The notes below the pieces were generated by a model that was not told where the DNA came from, ran no database searches, and was given only the letters and a program-made list of their open reading frames with translations. A stretch of 53,930 bases of DNA from Caldiserica bacterium UBA4770 (GTDB lineage Bacteria; Caldisericota; Caldisericia; Caldisericales; Caldisericaceae), in the NCBI GenBank assembly GCA_002403335.1, contig DHHO01000002.1:71540-125469 (forward strand). Direction: 5' to 3'. A program made the position numbers and the translations under genes. Of the stretch, positions 34,363 through 53,226 are shown one piece after another. Position 1 is the stretch's first letter; every line of letters begins with the position of its first letter.

Positions 34363-35394
34363 ATGAAAAAAGTATTTATCATTATTCTCATTCTAGTTTT
34401 GCTTTTGCTTGCAGCAGGAGCAGGGTATTACTATTTTATTTTTTTCAAAATACCGACTTATACCTTTATGCAGATTAAGAAAGCATATGATACGCATGAT
34501 GTAGAGCTGTTTAAGAAATATGTTGATGTAGATAGTTTTTGCGAACAGGTCGTGGATGATTATGTAACATGGATAAGCCAAAGTGATTTAGCAGATACCG
34601 GAACTGATGTATGGTCAGAGTTAGGTAGTAATATCGCAAAAGGAATGATTGGTCTAATGAAACCTCAAATGGTAACAGAGATGAAAAATGGATTGCTTTA
34701 TTCTGTGGAAAACAATTCAATTAACTCCTCTTCCAGTCAAAATACTTTAAAAGATATAATCAGTGGTGTATCAAATTTACAATCCTTTATTAATAACAAT
34801 TCTGTTTCGACAGTCAAGAATGGTAAAATAACTACGCTCAAGTTTACTATTCACAACGATCAGTATAGTGCCGATTTGGAAATTGACCTCTTACTGAGAG
34901 AGAAAGGTAACCACCTGCAAGTTGTTAAAGTCAGTAATCTCTTAGATTACTTAAAGACTATTGACTATCTTGAGCAAGAACGTATTGATGACCTTAACGC
35001 AAATATTACTAATAACATGCAAGAATTGCTCAGTATTTCCAATGTTAAATATGAGTGGACTGAGCCTGATGAATGGACTACATATGTAGATGTGACTTTC
35101 TTTGCAGATTTTAAAAACAATGGCAATAAAACAATTGACAAATTTACCCTTTCATTAACATTATACGATTCTTCTGGTAACAAAATAACGGATATCGATT
35201 TTGACGAGAGCAAAATAATTAAATCAAGTTCTGTTGTTAAGATTAAGTTAAATAAAGAATTCGATATTTATGACTCGAATGACAAAAAAGCATTAGACTC
35301 GTTACGAAAGGGAGATGGAACATATGATGTTACGTATACTTATATTCACTTTGCGGATGGAAGTGAATTAAAACTTCATAAAAAATTTGAGTAG
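34363..35394 (+). CDS. Membrane-anchored extracytoplasmic protein of unknown function
   Basis: 343 aa; N-terminal TM anchor (IIILILVLLLLAAGAGYYYFIFF) then an Asn/Ser/Thr-rich beta-type domain; first gene inside the island. Confidence 0.55.
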   Translation: MKKVFIIILILVLLLLAAGAGYYYFIFFKIPTYTFMQIKKAYDTHDVELFKKYVDVDSFCEQVVDDYVTWISQSDLADTGTDVWSELGSNIAKGMIGLMKPQMVTEMKNGLLYSVENNSINSSSSQNTLKDIISGVSNLQSFINNNSVSTVKNGKITTLKFTIHNDQYSADLEIDLLLREKGNHLQVVKVSNLLDYLKTIDYLEQERIDDLNANITNNMQELLSISNVKYEWTEPDEWTTYVDVTFFADFKNNGNKTIDKFTLSLTLYDSSGNKITDIDFDESKIIKSSSVVKIKLNKEFDIYDSNDKKALDSLRKGDGTYDVTYTYIHFADGSELKLHKKFE

Positions 35395-37412: not shown

Positions 37413-37436
37413 TTGACAAAGATTTTCATTTGTCAA
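37413..37436. promoter_or_regulatory. Perfect 8-N8-8 palindrome (candidate operator or promoter element) upstream of the hsd operon
   Basis: TTGACAAA-gattttca-TTTGTCAA; the left arm also supplies a consensus -35 hexamer TTGACA. Confidence 0.3.
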
Positions 37437-37582
37437 TAATTAATAGTGAGAAGAGTTTTGTTTTAACTTTTACTTTATAATGGGTACTAATTAATAAATA
37501 TGACTGACGGCTTTGTTGAAAATATTGAGATAATCTGCTTATAAGGAGTGCAGATTACAGAGAATTAAAAAACGAGGTGAAA

Positions 37583-37747
37583 ATGGGTATGCATATTATA
37601 AAAGGGTGGGTATTGACCACAATTGTAGATCTCTCAAATAGTTTATCTTTACGCCAAGACTGTGAGGATATACGAAGCAAGACGTATACAAAAGTGTTAA
37701 GAGAAAAGCAAAAGCCTGCTTCTATTAAAATAAGGGTGGAAGAATGA
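37583..37747 (+). CDS. Small 54-aa basic ORF translationally coupled to hsdM
   Basis: RBS GAGGTG-4 nt-ATG; stop TGA overlaps the hsdM ATG (ATGA); sequence [54 protein letters not shown]. Confidence 0.25.
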
Positions 37748-40200
37748 GCAACGGAAAGATTACATTAAGACAACTTGAAACACACTTATTTAGAGCTGCA
37801 GATATCTTAAGGGGCAAAATGGATGCCTCCGAATATAAAGAATACATATTTGGTATGCTATTCTTAAAGCGTACTTCTGACATATTTGAAGAAAAGAGAG
37901 GAATAATAAGAAACAAACTTAAGTCCGAAGGTCTTTCTGACAAAGAAATTGAAGAACTGCTCGAAGACCCAAATATTTACGATGAGACTTTCTTTGTTCC
38001 CAAAAGAGCCAGATGGGCAAATATCTTAATCTTAAAAGAGGATGTTGGCAACCAACTCAACAAAGCTCTCAGTGCTATAGAAGAGGCAAACCCAGAGCTA
38101 GATGGAGTATTAAAACATATTGATTTCAACGCAATAAAGGGGAAAACGCGCTTAAAAGACCAACAACTCGTAGATTTGATAAACCATTTCAACAAATACA
38201 GGCTAAGGAACGAGGACTTTGAATTTCCCGACCTACTTGGAGCTGCCTACGAATATCTTCTAAAAGAATTTGCAGATTCAGCAGGGAAAAAAGGTGGCGA
38301 GTTCTACACCCCACCGCATGTAAAAACGCTAATGGCAAAACTTGTAAAACCACAGGAAGGGATGACCGTTTATGACCCTACTGTCGGTTCTGGAGGTTTT
38401 TTGATTGAGTCAAGACAATATGTAGAAGAGCAAGGTCAAGACCCACGAAACTTAGCTCTCTACGGACAGGAATCTAACGGTGTAACATGGTCAATATGCA
38501 AAATGAATATGATACTTCACGGTATCCTCGATGCAAGCATTGAGAATGATGACACGCTTACAACGCCCAAATTTGTAGAGAATGGCTATATAAAGACATT
38601 TGATAGAGTTTTGGCCAATCCTCCTTTCTCTCAAGATTATTCAAGGGCAAATATGCAATTTCAAGAAAGATTTAAATACGGTTTTACTCCAGAAAACGGC
38701 AAGAAGGCTGACTTAATATTCCTGCAGCATATGATCGCGAGTTTGAAAAGTAATGGAGTAATGGCAAGCGTTATGCCTCACGGAGTTTTGTTCCGAGGTG
38801 GTCAGGAAAAAATAATAAGGGAAGGAATTGTTAATGACAATATCATTGAGGCGATAATAGGCTTGCCTGAGAAACTTTTTTATAATACAGGCATACCTGC
38901 ATGCATCATTGTAATAAATAAGAACAAACCGTTGCACCTTAAAAACAAAATTTTGTTTATAAATACCGACAGAGAATACGGAGAAGGCAGAAACCAGAAC
39001 TACCTAAGGCCAGAGGATATAGAGAAGATCTTGACAGTTTTTGATAGGAAGTTGGAATTGCCAAAGTATTCAAGGCTTGTGGATATAAAGGAAATCGAGG
39101 ATAACGACTTTAATCTCAATATAAGGCGATATGTGGATAATTCGCCAGAAAGAGAAGCAGAAGATGTTCAGCATCACCTGTTGGGGTCTGTGCCAAAAAG
39201 CGAAGTTAGCACATATCAATCGCAGTTGGAGAAGTTCAATTTCAATTTAAGCGTTCTTTTTGCTGAAAAAGATGATAAAAACCTTGAATTCTTAGAAAGA
39301 ATTGATGATAAGAGCAAGATAAAAGAAGGCATTGAAAATCACGAAGGCGTTAAAGATAGATTTTCCAAGCATTACCAGGCGTTAAACGAGTGGTGGCAAG
39401 AAACTAAAGAAGAAATAGAAAATCTACCTCATAAAAATAATCTCTTGGGACTTAAGAATAAGGCAATGCATGCTTTAAAAGACAAATTGCTTCCTCTTGA
39501 GTGTCTTGATGAATTTAAGATTGCAGGTGTTTTTGTTAATTGGTGGGAAGAGCTAAAATATGACTTTAAGACCATCGTTTCATCTGGATGGAGCAAGGAG
39601 CTTATTCCCGACGAAAGAATAGAACAAAAGTTTTTTGCCGATGATTTAAAGGGTATTGAGGAACTCGACGCAAAAATTGCTGAAATTGTTGGTGAGCTAA
39701 ACGAAACCCTTGAAGAAGTTGAGGACTGGGACGAGGAAGAGCAAGGGCAGAAAACCGCAGGCAAAGTAAGAGACTATCTAAAAGAAACAATTAACGACCT
39801 TCACTCTGCTTCACAGGAGATAGCCCTTAAAGAAATATCAAAATTGGAAGATTTGATTAAAAGGATAGATGCTTATGACAGAGAATTAAAGAAATTAAAC
39901 AAAGATTTGAAATCAAAGAGACAGAATATAGATAGCAAAGTAAGTCAAAAGAGGGAAACCTTAACAGAAGATGAGGCAAAGGAGATACTCATAGAAAAGT
40001 TTTATGAAGTTATAAAAGATTATCTCACAAAATACCTGAATGCTGAAAAGAAAGAACTAATAAGAATTTTTGAGAACCTCTGGGACAAATACAAAACTTC
40101 ACTTGAGCAGTTAAAAACCGAGAGAGACGAAGAAGTTAAGAAGCTGGATGAGTTTTTAAAGAAGTTAGGGTATAATCTGCTGAAGAAAAGTGCAGATTAG
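37744..40200 (+). CDS. hsdM: Type I restriction-modification N6-adenine DNA methyltransferase subunit HsdM with long C-terminal coiled-coil extension
   Basis: HsdM N-terminal domain ([29 protein letters not shown]), SAM-binding [10 protein letters not shown] and catalytic NPPF ([10 protein letters not shown]). At 818 aa it is about 300 aa longer than typical HsdM, with an E/K-rich coiled-coil tail. Confidence 0.9.
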
Positions 40201-40236
40201 AAGGAATATACAAATAAGTCAATTATGGAGGCGAAA

Positions 40237-41364
40237 ATGAAGAAAAAAGACCCATACATACCAAAGAAATTTCCTCCAGAGAAAATAAAATGGAAGGAAA
40301 TAATTCCACTGATTAGCAAGGCTAACTCAGCCATAGCACGTTTTGACGGCATGCTTCAGAGCTTAGTAAATCCTGGTGTCTTACTTTCGCCTCTCACAAC
40401 AAAGGAAGCTGTTTTGTCATCTCGTATTGAGGGAACGCAAGCAACATTAGAAGAAGTAATGCAAGAAGAAGCAGGATTTAACGACAAAAAAATTTCAACT
40501 TCTCTCAAGGAAGATATCAAAGAAATCATTAATTACCGTAATGCATTAACTTTTGCAGAAGAAGAACTAAGCCATAGGCCAATGACTTTAGGCCTAATTA
40601 AAGATATTCACGCAATATTGCTTGATAGCGTAAGAGGAAAAGATAAGTCTCCTGGAGAATTCAGAAATAACCAAAATTGGATTGGAATTTCTGGCATGCC
40701 AATGGAAGAGTCTCGATTTGTGCCTCCAAACCCAATAGTTTTACAGGAACATCTTGAAAGATGGGAAGATTTTCTTCGCTTTGACGGATTCCCTGATACA
40801 TTAGTTCAACTTGCTATTATTCATGCCCAATTTGAGATTTTACATCCGTTTAAAGACGGGAATGGTAGAACGGGACGATTGATTATCCCATTATTCCTAT
40901 TTTGGAAAAAGTTGCTAACTAAACCAAGTTTTTATATGAGTGAGTATCTTGAGAGAAATAGGCAGCAATATGACGATAAATTGCTTTTCATAACGGAAAA
41001 AGGTGATTGGCAAGGATGGATAGAATTCTTTCTAAATGCAATTATTGAACAGTCTGAAATAAACACCGGTAAAACAAAAAAGATGCTTGAACTTTACGAA
41101 GGGAGCAAAAGAAAATTTGCAGTTGCAACTCAATCACAATATGCTATTGCGGCATTGGATGCTTTCTTTAAGCAGCCGATTATAAACACTTCATTGTTCT
41201 TAAAGATTGCAGCTATTCCTAATAGAGTAACAGGCAACAAAATCTTGAAGAAGCTGTTGGACGATAAATTAATTAAGTTGTATAAGCCATCAGAAGGAAG
41301 AAAACCAGCCATATATATTTTCTGCGACTTGTTGAATATTGTCGAAGACAAAAGAGTATGTTGA
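40237..41364 (+). CDS. fic: Fic-family protein (class II, auto-inhibited AMPylase type) embedded in the hsd operon
   Basis: Canonical Fic motif HPFKDGNGRTGRL; N-terminal inhibitory helix motif SSRIEGT ((S/T)xxxE(G/N)); likely start at the second ATG after the GGAGG RBS. Confidence 0.85.
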   Translation: MKKKDPYIPKKFPPEKIKWKEIIPLISKANSAIARFDGMLQSLVNPGVLLSPLTTKEAVLSSRIEGTQATLEEVMQEEAGFNDKKISTSLKEDIKEIINYRNALTFAEEELSHRPMTLGLIKDIHAILLDSVRGKDKSPGEFRNNQNWIGISGMPMEESRFVPPNPIVLQEHLERWEDFLRFDGFPDTLVQLAIIHAQFEILHPFKDGNGRTGRLIIPLFLFWKKLLTKPSFYMSEYLERNRQQYDDKLLFITEKGDWQGWIEFFLNAIIEQSEINTGKTKKMLELYEGSKRKFAVATQSQYAIAALDAFFKQPIINTSLFLKIAAIPNRVTGNKILKKLLDDKLIKLYKPSEGRKPAIYIFCDLLNIVEDKRVC

Positions 41365-41398
41365 AGTTGTGCAAACTAAAGTATTCACAAAGGTATTT

Positions 41399-41429
41399 GT
41401 GTAAACTCAAAACATGTTTTAGTTTACAC
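41399..41429. promoter_or_regulatory. 31-bp near-perfect palindrome/hairpin between fic and hsdS
   Basis: GTGTAAACT-c-AAAA-CATG-TTTT-AGTTTACAC (13-bp stem, one bulge, CATG loop), followed by a U-rich tract AACTTTGGTTGTGTTAATTTT. Confidence 0.4.
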
Positions 41430-41523
41430 AACTTTGGTTGTGTTAATTTTAGCGCACACAAGAATTGCTAAAAGCAGAGAATGATGGCTATGAAGAAAAT
41501 AGAGTTGCAACAAAGGAGCATAA

Positions 41524-41572
41524 GGGGAAGCAAAGGAGTCAAAGGGGTCCTAATGGGGTCATTAAGGGGTCA
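41524..41572. repeat. Five helically phased (10-11 bp) GGGG(T/A)(C/A) direct repeats upstream of hsdS
   Basis: GGGGAA 41524, GGAGTC 41535, GGGGTC 41544, GGGGTC 41555, GGGGTC 41566; iteron-like spacing. Confidence 0.4.
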
Positions 41573-41659
41573 AAGGATGAACCAAGCATACAATAAAGGC
41601 TTAATAAATGTGCAAAAAATATACCATAAAGACCTAAAATAAACTAATAGGGACAAAAG

Positions 41660-42892
41660 ATGGAGAATAAAGAAGAATTTAAAATAAAGAACGTGGAGAC
41701 GCTCCCCGACGGCTGGAAAAGGGTGAAGCTGGGGGAAGTATTAGAAGAAAGAGATGAAAGAGTTGGGAATGCAGAGTTAGAACCTGTTGCAATAGGTGTT
41801 CAAGGGGTTAGAAAAAGGAATGAGATCTATTATAAAGATCTATCTGAGAATTATTCAAATAATAAGGTGTTTAAATACGGCTTTGTTGCATTTGGTCTAG
41901 GAACAAATGAAATGGCAATTGGTGTTAATGTTTTAAATGAAGATTTTTGCGTTAGCCCTGCTTACAAAGTTTTTGAAATCAAGAACGGAGATGCTATATT
42001 TTTTCAATATTTTGTAAACTTTATTAAAATTCTTTTTGGCAATAAGTTTTTAACAGTTTCTGCAAGACAGGGTAAAAGTATAGACTTTAAGTGGTTCCTT
42101 CAAGAGAATGTTATCCTTCCTCCACTTCCTGAGCAGAAGAAAATTACGGAAATTCTGGAGACTGTTGATAATGTAATAGAAAAAACTGATGCGATTATTG
42201 GAAAATACAAACGGATTAAGCAGGGCTTGATGCAGGATTTACTTACCAAGGGCATAGACGAAAAGGGACAAATCCGAAGCGAGCAAACTCACAAATTCAA
42301 AGACTCCCCCCTTGGCAGGATTCCCGAAGAGTGGGAAGTTGTGAGGCTGGGGGAAGTGGGAGACATATTTGACAGCAAAAGGATACCGTTAGATGGAGAA
42401 TATAGATCAAATATAAAGGGAGAATTTCCTTATTGTGGCGCTACTGGAATTATTGATTACATAAACGACTATATATTTGATGGAGAGTTTGTTTTGATTG
42501 CAGAAGATGGCGGCAAATTTAATCGTTTTGAAGATACGGCTTATTTAATGATGGGAAAGTTTTGGGCTAATAATCATGTTCATATTGTATTTGGAAAAGC
42601 GGATTTTTTGAATAATGCTTTTTTACAATACTTTATAAATTACGAAGACGTAAGTTCTTACATTTCTGGAAGCACGAGAGAAAAACTAAACCAGCGACTT
42701 TTAAAAAATATTATTCTTCCTCTTCCTCCACTTCCTGAGCAGCAACGCATTGCCGAAATCCTTTCGCAGATTGACGAAACAATTGAAAAAGAGATACAAT
42801 ATAAAGAGAAACTTGAGCGCCTCAAAAATGGCCTTATGGAAGATTTATTCACCGGCAAGGTAAGAGTAAACAATTTAGTAAAGGAGGAGTGA
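41660..42892 (+). CDS. hsdS: Type I RM specificity subunit HsdS (two target-recognition domains)
   Basis: Two TRDs separated and followed by the conserved HsdS helices LPPLPEQKKITEIL and LPLPPLPEQQRIAEIL. Confidence 0.9.
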   Translation: MENKEEFKIKNVETLPDGWKRVKLGEVLEERDERVGNAELEPVAIGVQGVRKRNEIYYKDLSENYSNNKVFKYGFVAFGLGTNEMAIGVNVLNEDFCVSPAYKVFEIKNGDAIFFQYFVNFIKILFGNKFLTVSARQGKSIDFKWFLQENVILPPLPEQKKITEILETVDNVIEKTDAIIGKYKRIKQGLMQDLLTKGIDEKGQIRSEQTHKFKDSPLGRIPEEWEVVRLGEVGDIFDSKRIPLDGEYRSNIKGEFPYCGATGIIDYINDYIFDGEFVLIAEDGGKFNRFEDTAYLMMGKFWANNHVHIVFGKADFLNNAFLQYFINYEDVSSYISGSTREKLNQRLLKNIILPLPPLPEQQRIAEILSQIDETIEKEIQYKEKLERLKNGLMEDLFTGKVRVNNLVKEE

Positions 42893-42895
42893 ACA

Positions 42896-44677
42896 ATGAA
42901 GGATGATGACTCAATTAGACTCGGCAAAGAAAACATCTTAAGTCTAGTAAGAAGATCTTATAATGGAGAGGTAGTGCTTCCTGATTTTCAGAGAAATTTT
43001 ATTTGGGATAGACAGGGGATAGAGGAATTTATTAAGTCTCTTTTAGAGAATGTTTTTATTGGTACATTTTTGATTCTTGAAACAGTTCCTGGCATGGAAC
43101 CTTTTAATTGCATTCTTGTTCAGGGAGCTAAAAAAGTAAATCCAAATATTGAAGCAAAACCAAAAATCATTATTCTTGACGGTCAGCAAAGACTTACATC
43201 TCTTTTTTATGCTATATACAGCCCTGATATTCCTCTTAAAAACACAGAGAGACCTTATGCTTTTTTCATTGACTTACAGAAACTTGCAGAAGATGATATA
43301 GATGAGGCAGTTTTCAGCCATCCAAAAGATCATATGTTTTATAAAAATCTTTTAGATGGAAGAACTTCTTTTGATACCGAAAAACTAAAAGAGTCAAAAG
43401 TAATCACTTTAGCATTGTTTCAAGATATAAGCACTTTTAACAAGCTTTGGTATAAGGAATTTAACAATTTGTTTGACAATGAGACAGCTGAAAAAGTGAA
43501 AGCCTACTTAGATAACATCTTTAGTTACGATGTAATAACACTATCATTATCGACATCTTTTAATGAAGAACCAGACAAAATAGTTGTTCTATTTGAAAGG
43601 TTAAACAGAACTGGCGTAAGGCTTTCTACATACGACCTTCTTGTTGCACGCATGTATAAGTTTATGAAACTTAGGGAAGAATGGGAAAGATTATTTAATG
43701 ATAGCAATAATTATCAGAATATTAGAAAACTTGCTTCTTATGAAATTGAAAACACCGATGTGCCTTTTTCATTTATTCGAGCATTAGTTCTTTCAAAGGA
43801 AAAAAGCATAAAAGATAGAGACCTTATAAAAATTGATTCTAAAATATTGAATAAAGAAGAGTGGAAAAGGGTTGTAGAAGTTGCTGAAAAAAAGGTCTTG
43901 AGCAGGCTATTTTACCAAGGCAATTACGGAATAGGTGGAGATATTGACAAGTGGCTTCCTTATTCAACAATTGTTATTCCTTTTCTTGCTTTATATTTAA
44001 AACATGACCATCCAGATGTAAAAAAGTTAGATATGTGGTATTGGAGTGTAGTTTTTTCGGAAAGTTATTCTGGATCTACATACTCAGAAATCATGAAAGA
44101 TTTTAGAGAAGTCTCAAGATGGTTTGAAGACGACTTATTAATACCTGAAGTTGTAAGAGAATTAAGGGATCAAATACTCAAAGGAGCATATTCTTTAAAA
44201 GACGTAAAGAGGGTTGGAAGCTCTTTGTTTAAAGGTGTTTTCAATTTAATCTTTAGGAATGATCCAGTGGACTTTTTCGAACCTGAAAACATTGCCTTTA
44301 ATGAGTTGAATGACCATCATATTTTCCCTAAAAATTTTCTTAAAGTGGTCAATGTTGATTCAGATATTGTTTTGAATAGGACTTTGATATTTGATAGGAC
44401 TAATAAAATTATTTCTAACAAGAGCCCAGAGGATTATATTAAAGAAATGATCGAAACTCAAAAGCAAAAGAATGTTTCTCTTGAGGAAGCAGAACGTAGA
44501 GTTAAAGAAATTTTTGAAAAACATTTTATAAATTGTGAGATGTACGAGATATTAAAGAATACTTCAAAAGACTTGCCAAAAGAGAAAATTAAAGAAAACT
44601 TCGAACGATTTATTGATTTAAGAGAGAAATTGATTTTGGCAAAGATTAAGGAATTAATTGGATTGAGGGAATATTAG
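42896..44677 (+). CDS. DUF262/DUF1524 two-domain nuclease (GmrSD/SspE-like type-IV-restriction family) between hsdS and hsdR
   Basis: N-terminal DUF262 (ParB/Srx-like) motif DGQQRLTSL; C-terminal DUF1524 His-Me-finger-like motif NDHHIFPKNF; RBS GGAGGAG. Confidence 0.8.
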   Translation: MKDDDSIRLGKENILSLVRRSYNGEVVLPDFQRNFIWDRQGIEEFIKSLLENVFIGTFLILETVPGMEPFNCILVQGAKKVNPNIEAKPKIIILDGQQRLTSLFYAIYSPDIPLKNTERPYAFFIDLQKLAEDDIDEAVFSHPKDHMFYKNLLDGRTSFDTEKLKESKVITLALFQDISTFNKLWYKEFNNLFDNETAEKVKAYLDNIFSYDVITLSLSTSFNEEPDKIVVLFERLNRTGVRLSTYDLLVARMYKFMKLREEWERLFNDSNNYQNIRKLASYEIENTDVPFSFIRALVLSKEKSIKDRDLIKIDSKILNKEEWKRVVEVAEKKVLSRLFYQGNYGIGGDIDKWLPYSTIVIPFLALYLKHDHPDVKKLDMWYWSVVFSESYSGSTYSEIMKDFREVSRWFEDDLLIPEVVRELRDQILKGAYSLKDVKRVGSSLFKGVFNLIFRNDPVDFFEPENIAFNELNDHHIFPKNFLKVVNVDSDIVLNRTLIFDRTNKIISNKSPEDYIKEMIETQKQKNVSLEEAERRVKEIFEKHFINCEMYEILKNTSKDLPKEKIKENFERFIDLREKLILAKIKELIGLREY

Positions 44678-44680
44678 GCA

Positions 44681-47600
44681 ATGATCCTTGACGAAGAGCA
44701 TTATGTAGAAAACTCTTTCCTTGAGCAACTGCAAAAGCTCGGTTGGAAAATTTATAGGCAGAATAAAGATGATTCCGAGGACGCAAAGGAGATTATTCAA
44801 TTCAATAATTTGGGTGTAGCCTCTTATGGAGAAAGCATTAAGTTCAGGGAAAGTTTTAGAGAGATAATCCTTGAGCAAGAATTAAGAAATTCAATTAAAA
44901 GAATAAACTCCTGGATAGAAGATGCCCAGGTAAGCGAAGTAGTAAGGCGAATAACAATGCCGCAAGCCAATTCACTGCTTGAAGCAAATAGAGAAATTCA
45001 TGACCTTTTCCTTGAAAACACTTCCATATCAGAGAATAGAAAAACAGGTGAAAAAAGCCCAACAGTTAGATTTATAGATTTTAAAAATCCAGAAAACAAT
45101 TCTTTTATCGCAATATCTCAGTTTAAAGTAAATATCCCAGGCACCGAGAAACATATCATTCCTGACATAGTTCTTTTTGTTAATGGCTTACCTTTGGTAG
45201 TGGTTGAATGTAAATCACCAGCAACAGCAGATCCAATAAGTGAAGCCATAACACAACTTATGCGGTATTCAAACAGACGTGGCGAGAAAGAAGGTAACGA
45301 GAAATTATTCTGGTACAATCTGTTTATAGTAGCAACTTCCAAACAGGTTGCAAAGATAGGTACAATCACATCGCAATACGAGGACTTCGTGGAGTGGAAG
45401 GACCCGTATCCTTACACTCTTTCAGACATAAGCGAAGAAGGTGTAATTACAAGCCAGCAACTTTTTATACAGGGAATGCTCTCAATTGAAAATCTCTCGG
45501 AAATACTCCACTCATTCACCATCTTTAAGGAAGATTCGAAAGGTGGAGTGGTAAAAATAGTGCCAAGATATCAACAATTCAGAGCAGTGAAAAAAATAGT
45601 AAAAAAGATAAAAGAAGGTAAAACACCAGAAGAGAGAGGCGGGATTATCTGGCACACACAGGGTTCAGGCAAATCAATGACGATGATGTATGCAGTAAGA
45701 GCAATATATCACGACCAAGAGCTAAGTAATTTCAAAGTAGTGTTTGTAACCGATAGAAAAGATCTCGAACGTCAGCTGAGAGACACATCAAAAAGTGTAG
45801 GCTACACTGTTAAACTCGCAAGGAGTATAAATGAGCTTAAAGAACTCTTGAAAACTGATACCCCTGATCTGGTCATGGGAATGATTAGTAAGTTTCAGGA
45901 AAGAGAACTTGAGCAGGAATTCCCGCTATTAAATACATCTCCGAATATCCTTGTTATGATAGATGAAGCACACAGAACACAATATAAACTCCTCGGGGCA
46001 AATTTGAAAAAAGCTCTTCCAAATTCAATTAAGTTAGCCTTCACAGGTACGCCAATTGAAAAAACAGAAATGACCTTTGGTGACTACATTGACAGATACG
46101 GTATAAAGCAATCTGTTGAAGACGGGGTAACCGTTGAGATCGTTTATGAGGGAAGGACGCATTCTGCGGAACTTACAAATGAAGAGGAAGCTAATGCAAA
46201 ATTTGAGGAAGTTTTCCAAAATGTTGATGCAGATGAAAAGAATAAAATAATGGGAAGATACACATGGAGAGCGTATCTTGAAGATGAAAATGTGATAAAA
46301 GACAAATCGAAGGACATGATAGAGCATTACATAACGCATGTCTTCCCAAATAAATTTAAGGCTCAGGTTGTGACTGCATCAAGAGTTGCAGTCGTAAGAT
46401 ACAAAAAGGCTCTTGAGGAATCACTCAAAGAGCATATTGAGAAGCTCAAGAGGGAAAACCCAGATAACGTAGATTTGGAAACGCTTGAGAGGTTGAAAGT
46501 TGCGGCAGTTTTTTCAGGAGCACAGAATGACCCACCTGAATACAAAGAATTTAGCGATGAAGTAATACAGGAAAAAGTTATAAAAAGCTTCAAGATGCCC
46601 TTCAATAAAATTGATGAAAGTGGAATAGCAGGAGAAGTGGGAATCATTATAGTGAATGAAATGCTTATTACAGGTTTCGATGCACCGCTTGAACAAGTGA
46701 TGTACTTGGACAATGTCATAAAAGAGCACAACCTTCTACAGGCAATCGCAAGAGTTAACCGAGTATATAAAGATAAACATTGTGGCTTTGTGGTTGATTA
46801 TGTAGGTGTTTTGAACCATTTAAAAGAAGCTCTCTCTATCTATGCGGATGAAGATATTGAAGAGATAAGCAAAGTTGTTTTTAACAAAGCACAAGCAGTG
46901 GACAAGCTTAGATATTATCATAACGAACTTTTAACATTTTTTGCAAAGCATTATATAAGAAACTTTAGAGAAGACTTCGAGGATTGTATTGAACTTCTCG
47001 AAGATGAAGAAATTAGAGACGAATTTATAGCCATTGTAAAAAATTTTAGTAATGCAATGGATAAAATTCTTCCAGATCCAGAGGCTCTGAAATACATAAG
47101 AGACTTGAAGATAGTCAATTTCATTAAAGAATCTGCGAAAAACAGATTTAGGGATGACAAGCTCAGTATAAAAGACGCAAGTGGCAAAGTAAGAGATATT
47201 GTAGAGGAATATTTGGTATCCAAAGGAGTTGACCCCAAGATTCCTCCGCTTCCACTGTTTTCAGATGATTTCATTTCAAAAGTAAAGGAAAAGCCGTCCA
47301 GAGACAAGACGGTATATCTAAAATATGCAATAACAGAATATATTGCGAAGCATTCTGAAGAAGACCCAGAATTTTACGAGCGATTTTCAGATAAACTGAA
47401 AAAGGTGCTTGACGAATATAGAGAAAATTGGGATTTGCTTGCGTATGAACTTGAGAATTTAAGAACTCAACTTAAAGAAGGCAGAGGAAGCGAACGGGAC
47501 TTTGGCTTTGACAGAAAAACTGAAATGCCATTCTTAGGCTTAATGAAACAGCTAGTATTTGGGAAAACTCCATTAGAGGAATTGAAAGAAGATGATATAA

Positions 47601-47836
47601 ACTTACTTGTCGAAGTAACAAAAGACACAGTTGCAATTATAAAAAGAGAGATAAGATATGTTGACTTCTGGGATAATTACCACAAGCAAAAGAGGTTAAA
47701 ATCTTACATAATTACCAACATCTTGCTTCCAAAAAAGAAAGAGAATCCTTTGCTCTACGATCTTAGAAACCAAATAGCACAGAGAATAATAGAACTTGCA
47801 TACCACATCTATGGAGAAAAGCATAATGGGCATTGA
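44681..47836 (+). CDS. hsdR: Type I restriction enzyme R subunit HsdR
   Basis: 1051 aa; N-terminal PD-(D/E)xK-like nuclease region (DIVLFVNGLPLVVVECK), SF2 helicase motifs (HTQGSGKS, VMIDEAHRTQ), C-terminal helical domain. Confidence 0.9.
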   Translation: MILDEEHYVENSFLEQLQKLGWKIYRQNKDDSEDAKEIIQFNNLGVASYGESIKFRESFREIILEQELRNSIKRINSWIEDAQVSEVVRRITMPQANSLLEANREIHDLFLENTSISENRKTGEKSPTVRFIDFKNPENNSFIAISQFKVNIPGTEKHIIPDIVLFVNGLPLVVVECKSPATADPISEAITQLMRYSNRRGEKEGNEKLFWYNLFIVATSKQVAKIGTITSQYEDFVEWKDPYPYTLSDISEEGVITSQQLFIQGMLSIENLSEILHSFTIFKEDSKGGVVKIVPRYQQFRAVKKIVKKIKEGKTPEERGGIIWHTQGSGKSMTMMYAVRAIYHDQELSNFKVVFVTDRKDLERQLRDTSKSVGYTVKLARSINELKELLKTDTPDLVMGMISKFQERELEQEFPLLNTSPNILVMIDEAHRTQYKLLGANLKKALPNSIKLAFTGTPIEKTEMTFGDYIDRYGIKQSVEDGVTVEIVYEGRTHSAELTNEEEANAKFEEVFQNVDADEKNKIMGRYTWRAYLEDENVIKDKSKDMIEHYITHVFPNKFKAQVVTASRVAVVRYKKALEESLKEHIEKLKRENPDNVDLETLERLKVAAVFSGAQNDPPEYKEFSDEVIQEKVIKSFKMPFNKIDESGIAGEVGIIIVNEMLITGFDAPLEQVMYLDNVIKEHNLLQAIARVNRVYKDKHCGFVVDYVGVLNHLKEALSIYADEDIEEISKVVFNKAQAVDKLRYYHNELLTFFAKHYIRNFREDFEDCIELLEDEEIRDEFIAIVKNFSNAMDKILPDPEALKYIRDLKIVNFIKESAKNRFRDDKLSIKDASGKVRDIVEEYLVSKGVDPKIPPLPLFSDDFISKVKEKPSRDKTVYLKYAITEYIAKHSEEDPEFYERFSDKLKKVLDEYRENWDLLAYELENLRTQLKEGRGSERDFGFDRKTEMPFLGLMKQLVFGKTPLEELKEDDINLLVEVTKDTVAIIKREIRYVDFWDNYHKQKRLKSYIITNILLPKKKENPLLYDLRNQIAQRIIELAYHIYGEKHNGH

Positions 47837-48494
47837 AATAAAAGAAATAAAAAGAGCGAAAAGAAAAACAATAGCCCTTCAAATAACTGATGAAGGAAAT
47901 TTGATTGTAAAGGCACCCTTCGAAGTAAGTGACAAAACCATAAAGAATGTTGTTATTCGTCATCTAAATTGGATAGAGAAAAAGAAGAAAGAAGTTCTTT
48001 CAAGAGACCCTAAATTTGCAAAAAAGGAGTTTGTGAACGGAGAGGGGTTCCTTTACCTTGGAAAGCATTACCAATTAATAATTGTTAAAGAGCAAGAAAA
48101 ACCTTTAATTTTTAGGAATGCGTTTTTCCTCTCGCAAAACCATCTTGAGAATGCAAAGGAAGAGTTCATAAGTTGGTACAAAGAGCACGCTTATGAAAAG
48201 ATTTCGGAGAGAGTTGGATGGTATGGCAAAAACAGCGGCTTTATATATGGCAAGGTTAAAATCACCAATGCAAATAAACGATGGGGCTCTTGCTCTTCAA
48301 ATGGAAACTTGAATTTTTCTTGGCGGTTAATTATGGCTCCTTTGCCTGTGATAGATTATGTTGTTGTACATGAACTCGTTCATCTCGAAGAAAAGAATCA
48401 CACAAAAATCTTCTGGAGTAAAGTGAAAACAATAATTCCAGATTATAAGAAACATGTAGATTGGCTTAAAACAAATGGATATCTCTTGAAGTAA
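47811..48494 (+). CDS. DUF45/YgjP-like (M48/WLM-type) HExxH zinc metallohydrolase
   Basis: HExxH motif VVHELVHLEE near the C-terminus; start overlaps the hsdR stop. This family commonly sits just downstream of hsdR. Confidence 0.75.
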   Translation: MEKSIMGIEIKEIKRAKRKTIALQITDEGNLIVKAPFEVSDKTIKNVVIRHLNWIEKKKKEVLSRDPKFAKKEFVNGEGFLYLGKHYQLIIVKEQEKPLIFRNAFFLSQNHLENAKEEFISWYKEHAYEKISERVGWYGKNSGFIYGKVKITNANKRWGSCSSNGNLNFSWRLIMAPLPVIDYVVVHELVHLEEKNHTKIFWSKVKTIIPDYKKHVDWLKTNGYLLK

Positions 48495-48810
48495 TAATGC
48501 GAGTTTAATAAGTTTGCTGGTTCTAGTGGACAGCTTTCCCTGTGTAACCTTGTTTTTATTGTCATAATACAGCAGATAAACAGTCGAATTTTACGAAGCT
48601 TTCCCACAAATTGCTTTACAACCTCGTTTATATGTTAATTGTTATATGAGACTCTGAACCTTGCTTTTAAAAGAAGATTTACGATGTAAAGAGACAAATA
48701 AGTTAAAGACTGAACAACCCTCTCGCCTACCATGTCAAAGGAAGTTACTACAAGCCGTATGCAAAAGGAGCGCATATTGCTTGAATAATTATATTAACCT
48801 GCTTACGAAG

Positions 48811-49055
48811 ATTGCAGGTTACAGAAGATTAAAGATGATATGTAGGTTAAGTAGTGCAAATAGACTTTTCACTAACGACGTTCAAAGACCATTTAAGAGG
48901 GCATTGCACACCGGCATATCAAAGACAAAACAAAGACCACTGTAAAGATAATTTACTTACAGTTATGCAGGTGTTTAGCAATGCAACGGACTTTTCATTC
49001 GCAAGCTCATTTCAAAAACCGTTTAAGACGCATTGCACACCAGCATATCTGTGAT
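48811..49055. repeat. Degenerate partial repeat copies and a tandem ~65-bp duplication next to the right-hand repeat
   Basis: 48811-48870 is a shortened copy of the first 80 bp of the 340-bp repeat (GATTGCAGGTTACARARGATTAARGA...GTTAGTAGTGCA). Units 48862-48925 and 48988-49055 share ...GACTTTTCA...TTTAAGAGGGCATTGCACACCGGCATATC / ...TTTAAGACGCATTGCACACCAGCATATC. Confidence 0.45.
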
Positions 49056-49087
49056 AATTAACAAAGAAAGTTATAACCCGCCGAAAC

Positions 49088-49440
49088 AGATTGCAGGTTA
49101 CAAAGGATTAAGGAGAAGATCAAGAGAGGATTGGGGATAAGGACAAAGAAAAGTTAGTAGTACAGGCGGTAGTATCGCACCAAAAAATTTTCATTTCGTA
49201 AGCTCAAAGACCAGAAAAGTTTTTCGTGCACCGCCTTGCAAAAATCATTTTAAAAGGAAGAAATAAGTTGTAGTCAAATCCTACATACCGAGGTCGCATA
49301 GGTGAGACGGTTTTGATATAATTTTACCCACCCTCAGTTAGTTATTCGCCGTGCGATTGTAAATTCATTGGTAGGCTGACCGCCTGCTTCTTTATTCATA
49401 GAGAGCCTGCCCTGAACTTGTTTCAGGGGCCCGGCTCATA
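49088..49440. repeat. Right copy of ~340-bp direct repeat bracketing the accessory island
   Basis: Collinear with 33899..34240. Relative to the left copy it carries an extra hairpin CCCTGAA-cttgt-TTCAGGG (49410-49428) inserted between the shared ...CCGCCTGC and GGCCCGGCTC segments. Confidence 0.7.
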
Positions 49441-49469
49441 ATAAAAATGTTCCCACCCTGAAAACGAAA

Positions 49470-49512
49470 AAAGCCTGTCCTGAACCTGTTTCAGGGTCAG
49501 GATAATTTTTTG
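49470..49512. terminator. Bidirectional intrinsic terminator downstream of tRNA-Met
   Basis: Hairpin CCTG-t-CCTGAA-cctgt-TTCAGG-gt-CAGG flanked by AAAAAAG upstream and ATAATTTTTT downstream; on the minus strand it is followed by UUUUUUCGUUUU. Confidence 0.45.
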
Positions 49513-49686
49513 ATGGCGGAGACGGATCCCGGATTACGGCGCTAACTCCACCACCTGTATATAAATATGCAATGGGGGAGAAAAGTTTTTTAAAGAACTA
49601 TCTTAGTGAAATAAAAACTTAAGAATTGGTTTTAATTTTTTTATGATGGCTCAGGATAGGTTTTAGATAGTAATTAGTTATCTTTA

Positions 49687-49762
49687 TGGTGGCGGCGGGG
49701 GGATTCGAACCCTCGACACTCCGGGTATGAGCCGGATGCTCTAACCACTGGGCTACGCCGCC
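49687..49762 (-). tRNA. tRNA-Met (anticodon CAU; elongator type, or possibly Ile2/k2CAU)
   Basis: Manual fold: acceptor GGCGGCG/CGCCGCC, anticodon arm TCCGG-CTCATAC-CCGGA, T-loop TTCGAAT, discriminator A then CCA; lacks initiator features (G1-C72, no GGG/CCC in the anticodon stem). Confidence 0.8.
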
Positions 49763-50501: not shown

Positions 50502-50612
50502 ATATAAAGCATAGTCTGAATTACCTTAAAGTCAAAATACCTTGTATAGGTTTACGGAGCCCTCTTCAATACAAGGGGAAGGCCTTCTTTTGTTACAGGG
50601 GATTAAAACCTC

Positions 50613-50640
50613 TTGTAAAAAAGTAAATTGTAATTATAAT
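50613..50640 (+). promoter_or_regulatory. Sigma-70-type promoter giving a probable leaderless transcript
   Basis: TTGTAA-16 nt-TATAAT, with the ATG at 50647 only 6 nt after the -10 box and no RBS. Confidence 0.35.
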
Positions 50641-50646
50641 TTCTTG

Positions 50647-53226
50647 ATGAGACGTGTAGCCCAGGGTGTGATCATATTTTTGATTTTTCTTTTGGCGATT
50701 CCTGGTAGTGCTTTGGGTTCAACGCTTATTCCTCCTCCTGAAGGCCTTGTTGTATCAGAGATGCCGCTCGATTATTTCTCTATTGAGTACCCTGAGCTTC
50801 CTGTTGGTATTTATAAGGTTAATGATGCTGTAAGCCTTTATAATAACGTCTATTTTGCAAGTGCCCATAATATCCCTATATTTGCAAGGATTAACCTTTT
50901 TTCCTATTCTCTTATTTCCGAAGAGCCTCAGGATATTGATGCGCTCAGGTCTTATTATCTTAGCATACCAATCGAAGATATTGTAGCGAGAGAAAAAGCA
51001 TTATCTGCCATACTTTATCATGCTCAAGATGGGGGGAAGCCACTTACCTTCTCTATTCCGGAAGAGCCCCATATTGAGATAACATACAAGGTTGAGAGAA
51101 CCAAGAGCGGGGAGGTGAGAATCCCTGTAAGAAATGTTATACAAGGTGATAAAATAGTTACTTATTTTCTTCTGGATGCCTCAAAAGGTCCTTCCGAGGA
51201 GAGGCTTTCACCCATGGACATTGCAAAGATTTATGACATAGATACCTGCCTTCATAATTTAGTTGTTATAAGGAATAAATATGATAACGAGAATGTAGAT
51301 TTTTTGGGTTTTTTCGTTGATGTCCCTCACAGGGGTATTTCTGAAAATTATTTAAAGAGTGTTGAGAGTTCTCTTAAAGAGCTTGTGAGTTATCTTCATA
51401 AACAGGGGAAGCTTCTCCTTGTCCAAAACCTTACTGATGAAACACTTGAGATGGGGGAGTTCGGGGATCTTGTAGGCCTTCGAATCACAGAGGATAATCT
51501 TGCGTTACTGGAAAAGGCAAGGCTGAGGTTTAAGGACAGGACAATTTTTGCAACCTATGATGGAGACTTTTCACATTGGGGGAATGTGGAAAGGTTTTTG
51601 AATGAGTGCACTCTTTATGGGATATATCCAGAATTTGGAAGGGACACAAGTTCAGGGGAATTTTATTATTATGAAAAGGCTTTTGGAGAAAATGAAGAAA
51701 GATTTAAAGATTATTCTACAATAATAAAGGTTTTTAATCAGGCAGGGTTTGTCGAAGAGATTACCTCTGATTCTTCAAGAATTGTCCGTTTTGGAGAGTA
51801 TCCCTTCCTGAACTTTGCAATCTTTCATAGCAAACCTGCTACGGTAAGTGTGGATGGAACAATTTTCAAAGGTTCCAGTGATTTTAAGATTGTTGATTTT
51901 AAAGGGAACAGTGTAAATTTTACACTCAGAGACGACTCTGTTTATATTAAGCTTGAGGGCAGCGGTTATACATTCCTTAGGGTCTTAACAAACGATTTCA
52001 GCCCTGTATATATTGGGACTTTTTTGTCTAATTCCCTTTCAGGGCGTGCAAATACAATTATTGTCAATGCGGGAGAAAAAGGCGGAGTTGTTACACTCAA
52101 ATTTCTTGGTGGTGATTCCCTGGTTTCTCAGGATTTTACCATGGAGCCCCTTGGGGAGCGAAAGGTCTTACTTCAAAATGTCCCCACTCAGGTTGAGTTT
52201 AAGGGAGTGGTATATGATACTCCTCTACCTGAAAAGAAGGGCAGTAGTGTCTTTTTATGGATAGTTCCACTCCTTATCATTTGTTTGATATTTTTATTTA
52301 ATAAAAGGATTAGTTTGAAAAAGGGCATTAAGAGCAGGGATTTCTATGTGCTTTCTATATTGCTACCATCACTACTTATTTTTATAAACAGGGAATTCAT
52401 CCATTATAGTTCAATAACAATTCTTTACTTTGTATTTGCGCTGCTTTTCTTTATTGCCTCATTTCATCAAAAGGAGAGATTCAGGGTAATGTTCTTCGAT
52501 GGTCTTCTTATGTTGATACTTGGTTTTGTTTTTAACTTTTTTGAATTTGGCACATTTTTACCCTATGTTTTTAATGATCTCCCCCCCTTTGAAAGTTATC
52601 TTAATTTTATTTTTTACATACCATTTATTTTGACACTTATTTATTTTTTCAATGTTAATTCACAGGGATTTAAGAAAATAGAGCTCGTGTATATTATCAT
52701 TGTACTAATAGGAGCAATCTTCTTTTTTGATAATTTCTCTCTACCATTTGAATTTGACTTGAGTTTGAGAAGTTTGTTATCAATAGTCATTATTTTCGCA
52801 GGTTTTATCCTACTACAGATTTTTGAGAGGCCCATTGGGACAAAAGATGTGCTTTTACCCATATTGGCACTCTGCATTGCGCTTTCTACAATTCCTTTGA
52901 ATCGTTTGCTGAGGTACAATATTCTGATGAGAGCTTCCCCACCAATGCTATTGTTATTTCTGAAGGATTTTCACCTTTTTTCTGTTCCACTTTTCTTTGT
53001 TTCTGTTTTTGACTATGGAAACAGAAAGATTAGAAAAGGTGGTCACTATGCAAGTGTTGTATATATTATTTTTTATATTCTTGTTGCTTTTTACTTCCTT
53101 TCGCAGTATACTTTTAAACAGGCAGGCACAACTTTTGTATCAGGTTTTGTTTCCCTGATTATAAACGCGATAATAATTACCCTGCTTTTTATGCTTTTAT
53201 TAGAACCATCGAGGAATGATTTTTAA
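50647..53226 (+). CDS. Large secreted/membrane protein of unknown function (N-terminal extracytoplasmic domain plus C-terminal polytopic membrane domain)
   Basis: Start at ATG 50647 gives a classical signal peptide (MRRVAQGVIIFLIFLLAIPGSALG); about 500-aa soluble region then 10 or more TM helices. The track ORF begins at an upstream TTG. Confidence 0.55.
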   Translation: MRRVAQGVIIFLIFLLAIPGSALGSTLIPPPEGLVVSEMPLDYFSIEYPELPVGIYKVNDAVSLYNNVYFASAHNIPIFARINLFSYSLISEEPQDIDALRSYYLSIPIEDIVAREKALSAILYHAQDGGKPLTFSIPEEPHIEITYKVERTKSGEVRIPVRNVIQGDKIVTYFLLDASKGPSEERLSPMDIAKIYDIDTCLHNLVVIRNKYDNENVDFLGFFVDVPHRGISENYLKSVESSLKELVSYLHKQGKLLLVQNLTDETLEMGEFGDLVGLRITEDNLALLEKARLRFKDRTIFATYDGDFSHWGNVERFLNECTLYGIYPEFGRDTSSGEFYYYEKAFGENEERFKDYSTIIKVFNQAGFVEEITSDSSRIVRFGEYPFLNFAIFHSKPATVSVDGTIFKGSSDFKIVDFKGNSVNFTLRDDSVYIKLEGSGYTFLRVLTNDFSPVYIGTFLSNSLSGRANTIIVNAGEKGGVVTLKFLGGDSLVSQDFTMEPLGERKVLLQNVPTQVEFKGVVYDTPLPEKKGSSVFLWIVPLLIICLIFLFNKRISLKKGIKSRDFYVLSILLPSLLIFINREFIHYSSITILYFVFALLFFIASFHQKERFRVMFFDGLLMLILGFVFNFFEFGTFLPYVFNDLPPFESYLNFIFYIPFILTLIYFFNVNSQGFKKIELVYIIIVLIGAIFFFDNFSLPFEFDLSLRSLLSIVIIFAGFILLQIFERPIGTKDVLLPILALCIALSTIPLNRLLRYNILMRASPPMLLLFLKDFHLFSVPLFFVSVFDYGNRKIRKGGHYASVVYIIFYILVAFYFLSQYTFKQAGTTFVSGFVSLIINAIIITLLFMLLLEPSRNDF

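Follow-up and report, generated by a model that had tools for sequence, protein, structure and literature searches.

A type I restriction-modification operon of a Caldisericota bacterium with a SoFic-type fic gene and a BrxU/GmrSD-like gene at its gene junctions, probably as autonomous defence modules

A window of 53,930 nt (the whole stretch of DNA analysed here; contig DHHO01000002.1, positions 71,540 to 125,469, of Caldiserica bacterium UBA4770, assembly GCA_002403335.1) carries a type I restriction-modification (RM) locus in which a SoFic-type fic gene is located between hsdM and hsdS, and a gene encoding a DUF262 protein of GmrSD/BrxU-like architecture is located between hsdS and hsdR. 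According to the account in PMC4619093, which cites Miller et al., the name RloF was given in 2005 to a DUF262 gene found between hsdS and hsdR of Campylobacter jejuni. The same paper (PMC4619093) reports that, among the neighbours of GmrSD homologues, type I RM domains show the strongest enrichment. Compared by description, the DUF262 gene of the window has the same position as RloF, and the rlo/mlo open reading frames (ORFs) of C. jejuni are extra ORFs linked to hsdM, as fic is here. Unlike the families found in the window, the RloF/mlo ORFs were never functionally characterised. The term mlo was reportedly defined by Miller et al. as M-linked ORF. In addition, the SoFic gene of S. oneidensis bears the name mloA (bioRxiv 10.64898/2026.07.09.737422), which suggests that a fic gene beside hsdM may have been known equally long.

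That GmrSD-like genes are embedded in type I RM loci was stated explicitly by Payne et al. (2024), who discussed guard logic as one possible benefit, together with the "genomic sink" and selfish linkage. TgvAB, encoded in a type I operon of V. cholerae, protects when cloned alone, and a nuclease-dead mutation of HsdR leaves this protection unchanged (PMC11411939). As in TgvAB, a co-oriented DUF262/His-Me function with DGQQR and His-Me motifs lies here between the specificity/methylase genes and hsdR. However, TgvAB consists of two proteins, of which TgvA has no nuclease, whereas the enzyme of the window is a single protein; the sequence similarity is low, DUF1524 is undetected, and the Vibrio operon has no Fic gene. 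In both structure and profile searches, the DUF262 protein is matched best by BrxU (BREX on pEFER; PDB 7P9K). BrxU (in BREX) and HEC-05/HEC-06 (in Hma) are single-protein GmrSD-like enzymes within methylation-based defence that cover modified DNA, and a single gene is enough for protection in the case of BrxU and of HEC-06. The DUF262 protein is about 15% identical to BrxU, and its host system is a type I RM system.

As for the Fic protein, it shares with SoFic (PDB 3EQX) the Fic_N domain, the HxFx(D/E)GNGRxxR motif, the N-terminal SxxxEG helix and the C-terminal domain. SoFic AMPylates EF-Tu, blocking translation; the dimer binds specific DNA via a winged helix-turn-helix (wHTH) at its C-terminus, and the related CccR is an autoregulator (bioRxiv 10.64898/2026.07.09.737422). 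Sofic was described as a single-gene defence of the abortive-infection type; the wild-type protein is toxic and behaves like the toxin of a toxin-antitoxin (TA) pair, and an antitoxin, AS1, was reported downstream of E. coli Sofic (PMC12249575). Unlike the E. coli SoFic orthologues examined, the Fic protein of the window is encoded in a type I locus, and no AS1-like conserved small protein was found there. Finally, PrrC has been reported as almost exclusively type I-embedded. As in PrrC-EcoprrI, and as a sequence-only reading of the window had pointed out, the DUF262 gene occupies the slot between hsdS and hsdR; the gaps on either side are 3 nt. Unlike PrrC, it encodes an unrelated fold, and both passenger families occur mostly outside type I loci. 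Precedents for the arrangement are RloF, TgvAB, BrxU and "guilt-by-embedding", and the locus is a new example of it. The view that this is not a textbook arrangement does not stand beside the prior cases in PMC4619093 (RloF) and Payne et al.

The locus comprises six consecutive ORFs of the forward strand at approximately 37.7–48.5 kb, and its features are as follows.

37744..40200, forward strand, hsdM, type I methyltransferase subunit, 818 aa (Pfam, TIGR00497, PADLOC)
40225..41364, forward strand, fic, class II Fic AMPylase of SoFic type, predicted, 379 aa (Pfam Fic_N and Fic, PADLOC, PDB)
41366..41460, unstranded, three TTGTG-N14/25/14-CACAA inverted-repeat units forming a ~95-nt imperfect palindrome, which begins 2 nt past the fic stop
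41660..42892, forward strand, hsdS, specificity subunit with two target-recognition domains (TRDs), 410 aa (Pfam, PADLOC)
42896..44677, forward strand, gene for a GmrSD/BrxU-like putative type IV restriction enzyme, 593 aa (Pfam GmrSD_N, motifs, model, Foldseek)
44681..47836, forward strand, hsdR, restriction/translocase subunit, 1051 aa (Pfam, TIGR00348, PADLOC)
47796..48494, forward strand, gene for a YgjP-like/DUF45 HExxH metallohydrolase (Pfam YgjP-like, E=1.4e-58)

The co-directional gene order given by the sequence-only reading is real. The tight spacing described there is found at gaps of 24 nt (hsdM–fic), 3 nt and 3 nt (on the two sides of the DUF262 gene) and at the overlap of hsdR with the ygjP-like gene, and fails at the 295-nt spacer between fic and hsdS (41365–41659), which carries a weak terminator-like hairpin. 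A small upstream ORF (37577–37747) that had been counted as a member of the operon was rejected: it has no family match and no counterpart in four related loci (L001, L005, L081 and L082; comparison loci are denoted by L numbers).

The locus probably represents a four-gene hsd backbone with two autonomous single-gene defence modules inserted at gene junctions and acting in parallel. The first module would consist of the SoFic-type Fic and the palindrome array that belongs to it on its downstream side, at the hsdM-hsdS junction, and the second would be the BrxU/GmrSD-like protein, a DUF262 domain with a His-Me nuclease, inserted between hsdS and hsdR. The domains, the intact catalytic motifs, the co-orientation, the recurrence of the cassette, the cargo-free backbone and the free-standing relatives of the passengers are observed here. 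Since the cassette recurs, the cargo of the backbone varies and the passengers occur mostly elsewhere, the latter are regarded as autonomous modules and not as RM-dependent effectors. In the proposed mechanism, HsdM2S would methylate host DNA and HsdR would cut unmethylated invader DNA. The GmrSD-like enzyme, with its NTP-dependent DUF262 sensor and His-Me nuclease, would act against modified DNA escaping type I restriction. Fic, restrained by its SxxxEG helix, would AMPylate a host target as infection proceeds, leading to abortive infection. Embedding would provide largely common transcription and joint horizontal transfer. The targets of these layers and their independence are suggested by characterised relatives.

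According to its domain content, the locus is a normal type I RM operon with predicted methylation and cleavage activities. HsdM contains the N6_Mtase (E=3.5e-106) and HsdM_N (E=3.5e-30) domains and scores 256 against TIGR00497, above the cutoff of 242.75. The core (residues 11–471) is followed by a helical, K/E-rich C-terminal extension of ~340 aa, in which the Pfam and PDB searches gave no match. The sequence-only reading took this extension for an unusual feature; in fact, it appears typical of the subfamily. Among 120 homologues with 70–93% identity, lengths span 789–857 aa, nearly all being 810–836 aa, and the PADLOC profile MTase_I PDLC03031 covers HsdM end to end (5–810 of 834 profile positions). 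In HsdS, Methylase_S is found in two stretches (E=2.5e-44), together with many PADLOC Specificity_I matches. HsdR shows the Pfam domains HSDR_N, SWI2_SNF2, ResIII and T1R_D3-like, that is, both an N-terminal nuclease and a superfamily 2 (SF2) translocase; its TIGR00348 score is 510 versus a cutoff of 284.55, and PADLOC REase_I matches end to end. The YgjP-like protein has HELVH at residue 192, and the likely start of its gene is ATG 47826, inside the end of hsdR. This gene lies 3' of hsdR in L001, L005, L177, L178 and L179/L180 and, in addition, in L020, a distant type I locus; rather than an insert, it is a conserved member of the hsd backbone, its fourth gene. A literature search for a link of DUF45/COG1451 to type I RM, confined to the library at hand, gave nothing useful, and the link comes from the loci themselves.

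The PADLOC SoFic profile matches the Fic protein full length (E=8.6e-106, residues 7–374), and the PDB entries of SoFic, 3EQX and 9TC4, match residues 29–351 (E~4e-34), including the C-terminal region to about residue 351. Gene callers place the fic start at ATG 40237, which gives a protein of 375 aa. The Fic motif HPFKDGNGRTGR extends from H207 to R218, and its conserved residues are invariant in alignment A5. The class II inhibitory motif described in the sequence-only reading is present as SSRIEG (S65–G70), N-terminal to the Fic core, and is invariant in the same alignment except for R67. The PADLOC embedding-derived candidate models PDC-S04/S24 (Fic-like) also match. The score against the NCBIfam SoFic equivalog NF046030 is 167.4, below the cutoff of 550, and the identity to enterobacterial SoFic orthologues is probably ~27–30%. 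Since the score is below this cutoff, the protein is assigned to the SoFic-type family as a member rather than as a close orthologue of SoFic.

The DUF262 protein begins with an N-terminal DUF262 NTPase/sensor, continues with a helical linker and ends in a His-Me finger (DHHIFP...N...N). Pfam GmrSD_N/DUF262 is detected with E=3e-29. In the alignment with 25 homologues (A1), the QR, DGQQR and FxxxN motifs are conserved (Q32-R33, D95-G96-Q97-Q98-R99 and F233...N237), with D95 alone near-invariant, and the C-terminal D473-H474-H475, N494 and N503 are invariant. The AlphaFold model built from the 25 homologues has a predicted local distance difference test (pLDDT) value of 89.7 and shows a beta-beta-alpha nuclease element (strand 472–475, strand 495–498, helix 500–506). 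In a Foldseek search against the PDB, the sole significant full-length matches of the model were BrxU 7P9K (E=3e-11) and SspE (E=2e-4); a sequence-profile search also finds BrxU 7P9K. The embedding-derived PADLOC candidates PDC-M55C and HEC-05/06 match weakly. The family is large and thermophile-rich, with members of ~580 aa. The modelled fold indicates that the protein is GmrSD/BrxU-like in architecture, with predicted modification-dependent cleavage. Among the domain assignments of the sequence-only reading, those of HsdM, Fic, HsdS, DUF262, HsdR and DUF45 were confirmed by profile searches; DUF1524 went undetected by Pfam, and the nuclease end is supported by motif and fold.

The gene order hsdM-fic-hsdS-DUF262-hsdR(-ygjP) recurs in L001, from a metagenome-assembled genome (MAG) of Leptospiraceae, and in L081 and L082, from two JGI metagenomes; L120, a cut contig, keeps the hsdM-fic part. 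Every cassette protein of L001 is 41–81% identical to that of the window. In these loci, HsdM and HsdR are 57–81% identical to those of the window and HsdS just 35–41%; for sister cassettes, ranges of 57–85% for HsdM and HsdR and 35–47% for HsdS were also obtained. The lower identity of HsdS is as expected from TRD variability. An extra half-size hsdS (208 aa, one TRD) is located in L001 between fic and the full hsdS (L001:7914-8540). It is flanked by two copies of the array element and may either serve as a substrate when hsdS is shuffled or be the scar of a duplication.

Relatives of the same backbone (HsdM core 82–85%, HsdR 69–73%, YgjP 61–69% identical) occur in other cargo states. The bare set hsdM-hsdS-hsdR-ygjP without cargo is found in L177 and in Thermotoga profunda (L179/L180). 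In a Pseudothermotoga MAG, the hsdS-hsdR junction of the backbone contains a MNT/HepT toxin-antitoxin pair (L178:13591-14002), and in an archaeal MAG a 619-aa AAA_15/OLD-like ABC ATPase lies at this junction beside a DUF262 gene, with no Fic (L005:11721-13580). In addition, a TARA scaffold (L125:18-10461) carries an EcoEI-type type I locus unrelated to that of the window. Its hsdS-hsdR insert encodes a distant DUF262 protein (25% identity), a 410-aa protein without a Pfam match, a distant Fic protein (37%) and an OGG-like glycosylase, and a DUF3375 (JetA-like) gene is located downstream. L125 is an independent assembly of the DUF262 and Fic pairing, and therefore hsd junctions look like insertion hot spots. 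The pairing of SoFic and BrxU-like proteins within a single type I operon recurs, though as a minor variant.

The neighbourhoods of the DUF262 family were surveyed in 79 loci, one per species, with flanks of up to 10 kb. The DUF262 gene was located between hsdS and hsdR in two of these loci, and any hsd-like match was present in the flanks of 11. Among 139 immediate neighbours, there were five Methylase_S, five N6_Mtase and six ResIII matches; the remaining neighbours include BrxL, Eco57I/MmeI-type methylases, DUF499/DUF1156 and AAA_15/21. In Methanocaldococcus jannaschii, a homologue with 58% identity stands alone among ribosomal and metabolic genes. Other homologues lie behind a type ISP-like system and UvrD (73%), behind a MmeI-like/Mrr_N/PLD-SNF2 set (68%), at the end of a DUF499-DUF3780-DUF1156-PLD/SNF2 operon of Caldicellulosiruptor (57%), directly behind brxL (L003, 56%), beside a type IIG enzyme (L004) and in an island of Kosmotoga rich in insertion sequences.

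The junctions in two of the loci are also close. In L083:6804-11770 (MmeI-like/Mrr_N), the DUF262 homologue begins 24 nt behind the PLD and SNF2 helicase genes, and in L085:7332-11749 (DUF499-DUF3780-DUF1156) its start abuts the helicase stop of the PLD and SNF2 set. This hints that the DUF262 clade is a habitual 3' rider of several kinds of modification-based systems.

As for the Fic family, any hsd-like match was detected in at most four of 80 metagenome loci: a type I context was found in L120 and L125 only, and L118 and L144 gave weak methyltransferase matches. Fic homologues with 54–55% identity are free-standing in Hydrogenobaculum and Herbaspirillum. The E. coli SoFic orthologues examined are located in an integrative and conjugative element (ICE), beside a cytosine methylase island and in a flagellar cluster; none of them is in a type I locus. 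The neighbourhood check proposed in the sequence-only reading, namely a survey for recurrent embedding of both genes in hsd operons, was thus positive for the cassette, which recurs as a unit (L001, L081, L082, L120), and negative for the two families, which are mostly found elsewhere.

The least ordinary feature of the region is the palindrome array behind fic. The array (41366–41460) belongs to the fic module and not to hsdS. The Fic genes of L001, L082 and L098 are followed by this element with an identical offset, and that of L097 by part of it; two of the four are outside RM loci. The element is missing after the Fic gene of the sister cassette L081. Distant SoFic-type genes (L096, L121, L123, L141, L154 and others) are followed by arrays with a like layout and lineage-specific unit sequences, namely two to four palindromes of 24–34 bp each with a period of 30–41 bp. 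When the first ~150 nt after each Fic stop were scored, arrays followed 9 of 52 Fic genes versus none of 300 random windows of the same loci (Fisher p=1.8e-8). The coordinates of arrays in other loci are as follows.

L001:7840-7935 and L001:8655-8750, array elements
L082:3942-4080, array element
L098:2336-2420, array element
L096:8125-8235, array

An Rfam search of the array at E<=1 gave no match. The small ORFs of the spacer, 41358–41471 (37 aa) and 41481–41642 (53 aa), have no family matches; the ORF across the fic stop ranges from 31 to 97 aa among loci and is broken by stops in L097, though the DNA repeats persist. A protein antitoxin like AS1 encoded 3' of fic found no support, the spacer ORFs being neither conserved nor matched to a family; the E. 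coli SoFic loci examined either leave no space for such an element or show nothing comparable. An integron attC site was also rejected upon reading of the sequence, as the window copy does not contain the R''/R' consensus (RYYYAAC / GTTRRRY). A covarying RNA hairpin is less favoured: from locus to locus, the T/C differences between the arms do not keep to one strand sense, a pattern that favours repeated protein-binding units over an RNA hairpin but is not decisive. The dimeric SoFic binds specific DNA via its wHTH, and therefore the simplest guess is that the arrays are putative operator or docking sites for the wHTH domain of Fic. Alternatively, they may act as an RNA or another nucleic-acid regulator, or have a link to AS1, the antitoxin reported for E. 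coli Sofic.

The end of a free-standing Fic gene of Hydrogenobaculum, including its stop, shares 4 nt with an ORF of 61 aa (L094:8122-8307). This ORF and the ORF running through the repeat array of L082 have the short peptide KAxCxxYxxRKNF in common, which may simply reflect related DNA repeats.

Several observations weigh against the reading of the passengers as autonomous defence modules. The activities of all six proteins are predicted, and modified DNA is a putative substrate of the DUF262 clade. The EF-Tu target and the anti-phage role are transferred to this Fic by inference, because it scores below the NCBIfam SoFic cutoff. Pfam DUF1524/GmrSD_C is absent both on the whole DUF262 protein (E<=0.01) and on residues 431–593 (E<=10). 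The detection of neighbours partly relied on single-query tblastn, which can miss very divergent hsd genes. In addition, protection by the full five-gene TgvAB cluster is 10–100 fold stronger than that by tgvAB alone, which the authors put down to artefacts of expression (PMC11411939); the result leaves some room for cooperation.

Among the other explanations, the passengers could be selfish hitch-hikers or addiction modules, in which case Fic, and perhaps the nuclease, would persist by linkage to RM or by stabilising the locus and contribute little to defence. The toxicity of wild-type Sofic and its resemblance to a TA toxin agree with this, as do the interchangeable junction cargo, which in L178 is a bona fide TA pair, and the "genomic sink" and selfish-linkage arguments of Payne et al. 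However, the catalytic and regulatory motifs of both passengers are invariant across homologues with 50–80% identity, which indicates purifying selection on activity, and both families have members with experimentally shown anti-phage function. We consider this explanation unlikely.

It is quite unlikely, in our estimate, that the six genes form an integrated cassette, either with an Hsd-guarded nuclease and/or Fic or with an array-docked Fic gating the restriction genes. In the first of these forms, as in the PrrC-like latency put forward by the sequence-only reading, HsdM/S/R would physically hold the nuclease and/or Fic latent until an anti-restriction protein releases them. The position of the DUF262 gene in the prrC slot with 3-nt gaps on both sides, which probably implies translational coupling, speaks for such a guard, and so do the conservation of the full cassette, in one piece, on at least four further contigs, the guard logic discussed by Payne et al. 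as a possible benefit of embedding and the stronger protection by the complete TgvAB cluster. In contrast to the near-exclusive type I embedding of PrrC, however, the DUF262 family is in this position in 2 of 79 loci, with Methylase_S among 5 of 139 neighbours, and homologues at 57–73% identity stand alone or follow systems other than type I. The hsd backbone also occurs empty or with different genes as cargo. The DUF262 protein combines a ParB-like NTPase fold with a His-Me finger, whereas PrrC combines an ABC ATPase with an anticodon nuclease. For BrxU, HEC-06 and TgvAB, protection does not require the host system, and SoFic has its own intramolecular inhibitor. The guard therefore appears very doubtful, since the families occur mostly outside type I loci, the backbone is found cargo-free elsewhere and TgvAB works alone. 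The more general description of the locus as a layered defence module is fair: the domain assignments hold, the genes run in one direction and mostly lie close together, and the cassette recurs.

Regulatory coupling, in which the C-terminal domain of Fic bound to the array would control hsdS-DUF262-hsdR in the manner of a C protein, or Fic would AMPylate an Hsd subunit, has a slim chance of being correct. It would fit the conserved three-unit array placed exactly between fic and hsdS, as well as the binding of specific DNA by the dimeric SoFic wHTH and the autoregulation by the related CccR. However, like arrays follow free-standing Fic genes without downstream RM genes (L096, L094, L097, L098, L141), and L081, a sister cassette, has no array. 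The array thus goes with the Fic module, and the RM operon does not need it. Finally, decay of the locus, with insertions having broken the coupling of hsdM and hsdS so that the RM system no longer functions, is highly improbable: hsdM and hsdS overlap in cargo-free relatives (L177–L179) and are 1.46 kb apart in the window, including the 295-nt spacer with its weak terminator-like hairpin, but none of the six ORFs is truncated compared with homologues or frameshifted, the arrangement is conserved across taxa, and the identical locus is present in several independent metagenome assemblies and in a 144.8-kb NCBI MAG contig.

As for the surroundings of the locus, the flanking genes are ordinary metabolic ones. 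The G+C content of the locus is low (0.31–0.39 vs 0.38–0.44 further upstream), a tRNA-Met gene lies ~1.2 kb from it, and no integrase was found near the locus. The best promoter match upstream of hsdM is the following.

37413..37440, forward strand, candidate sigma-70-like operon promoter, TTGACA-16-AATAAT, 11/12

Promoter-like sites in the region are not enriched versus shuffled sequence, and this candidate is weak evidence.

Immediately upstream of the locus lies an ORF of 343 aa (34363–35394), which has no Pfam match and weakly matches PADLOC PDC-S55 over its first 190 residues (E=1.2e-7). This ORF and the next one, of 223 aa, lie in a low-G+C stretch and may share the same small island. 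Downstream, a 1.2-kb non-coding stretch (48495–49690) is located between the ygjP-like gene and tRNA-Met. Several direct repeats are scattered over it, of 41 nt (48795/49074) and 20 nt (48901/49030), and it has two copies, at 49404 and 49472, of a palindrome resembling repetitive extragenic palindromic (REP) elements, AGCCTG(C/T)CCTGAAC(T/C)TGTTTCAGGG; an Rfam search of the stretch at E<=1 gave no match. Beyond tRNA-Met, an 894-aa ORF with a TTG start (50542–53226) matches neither Pfam nor PADLOC.

The locus itself leaves the knowledge of type I RM systems, GmrSD enzymes and Fic proteins unchanged. It adds a thermophile-rich BrxU-like clade that is missed by the current Pfam DUF1524 and NCBIfam models. 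A natural embedding series is formed by the states of the highly conserved backbone: no cargo, a TA pair, DUF262 and an ABC ATPase, and SoFic and DUF262. This series of cargo states provides matched constructs for asking whether embedded defence genes cooperate with the host RM system.

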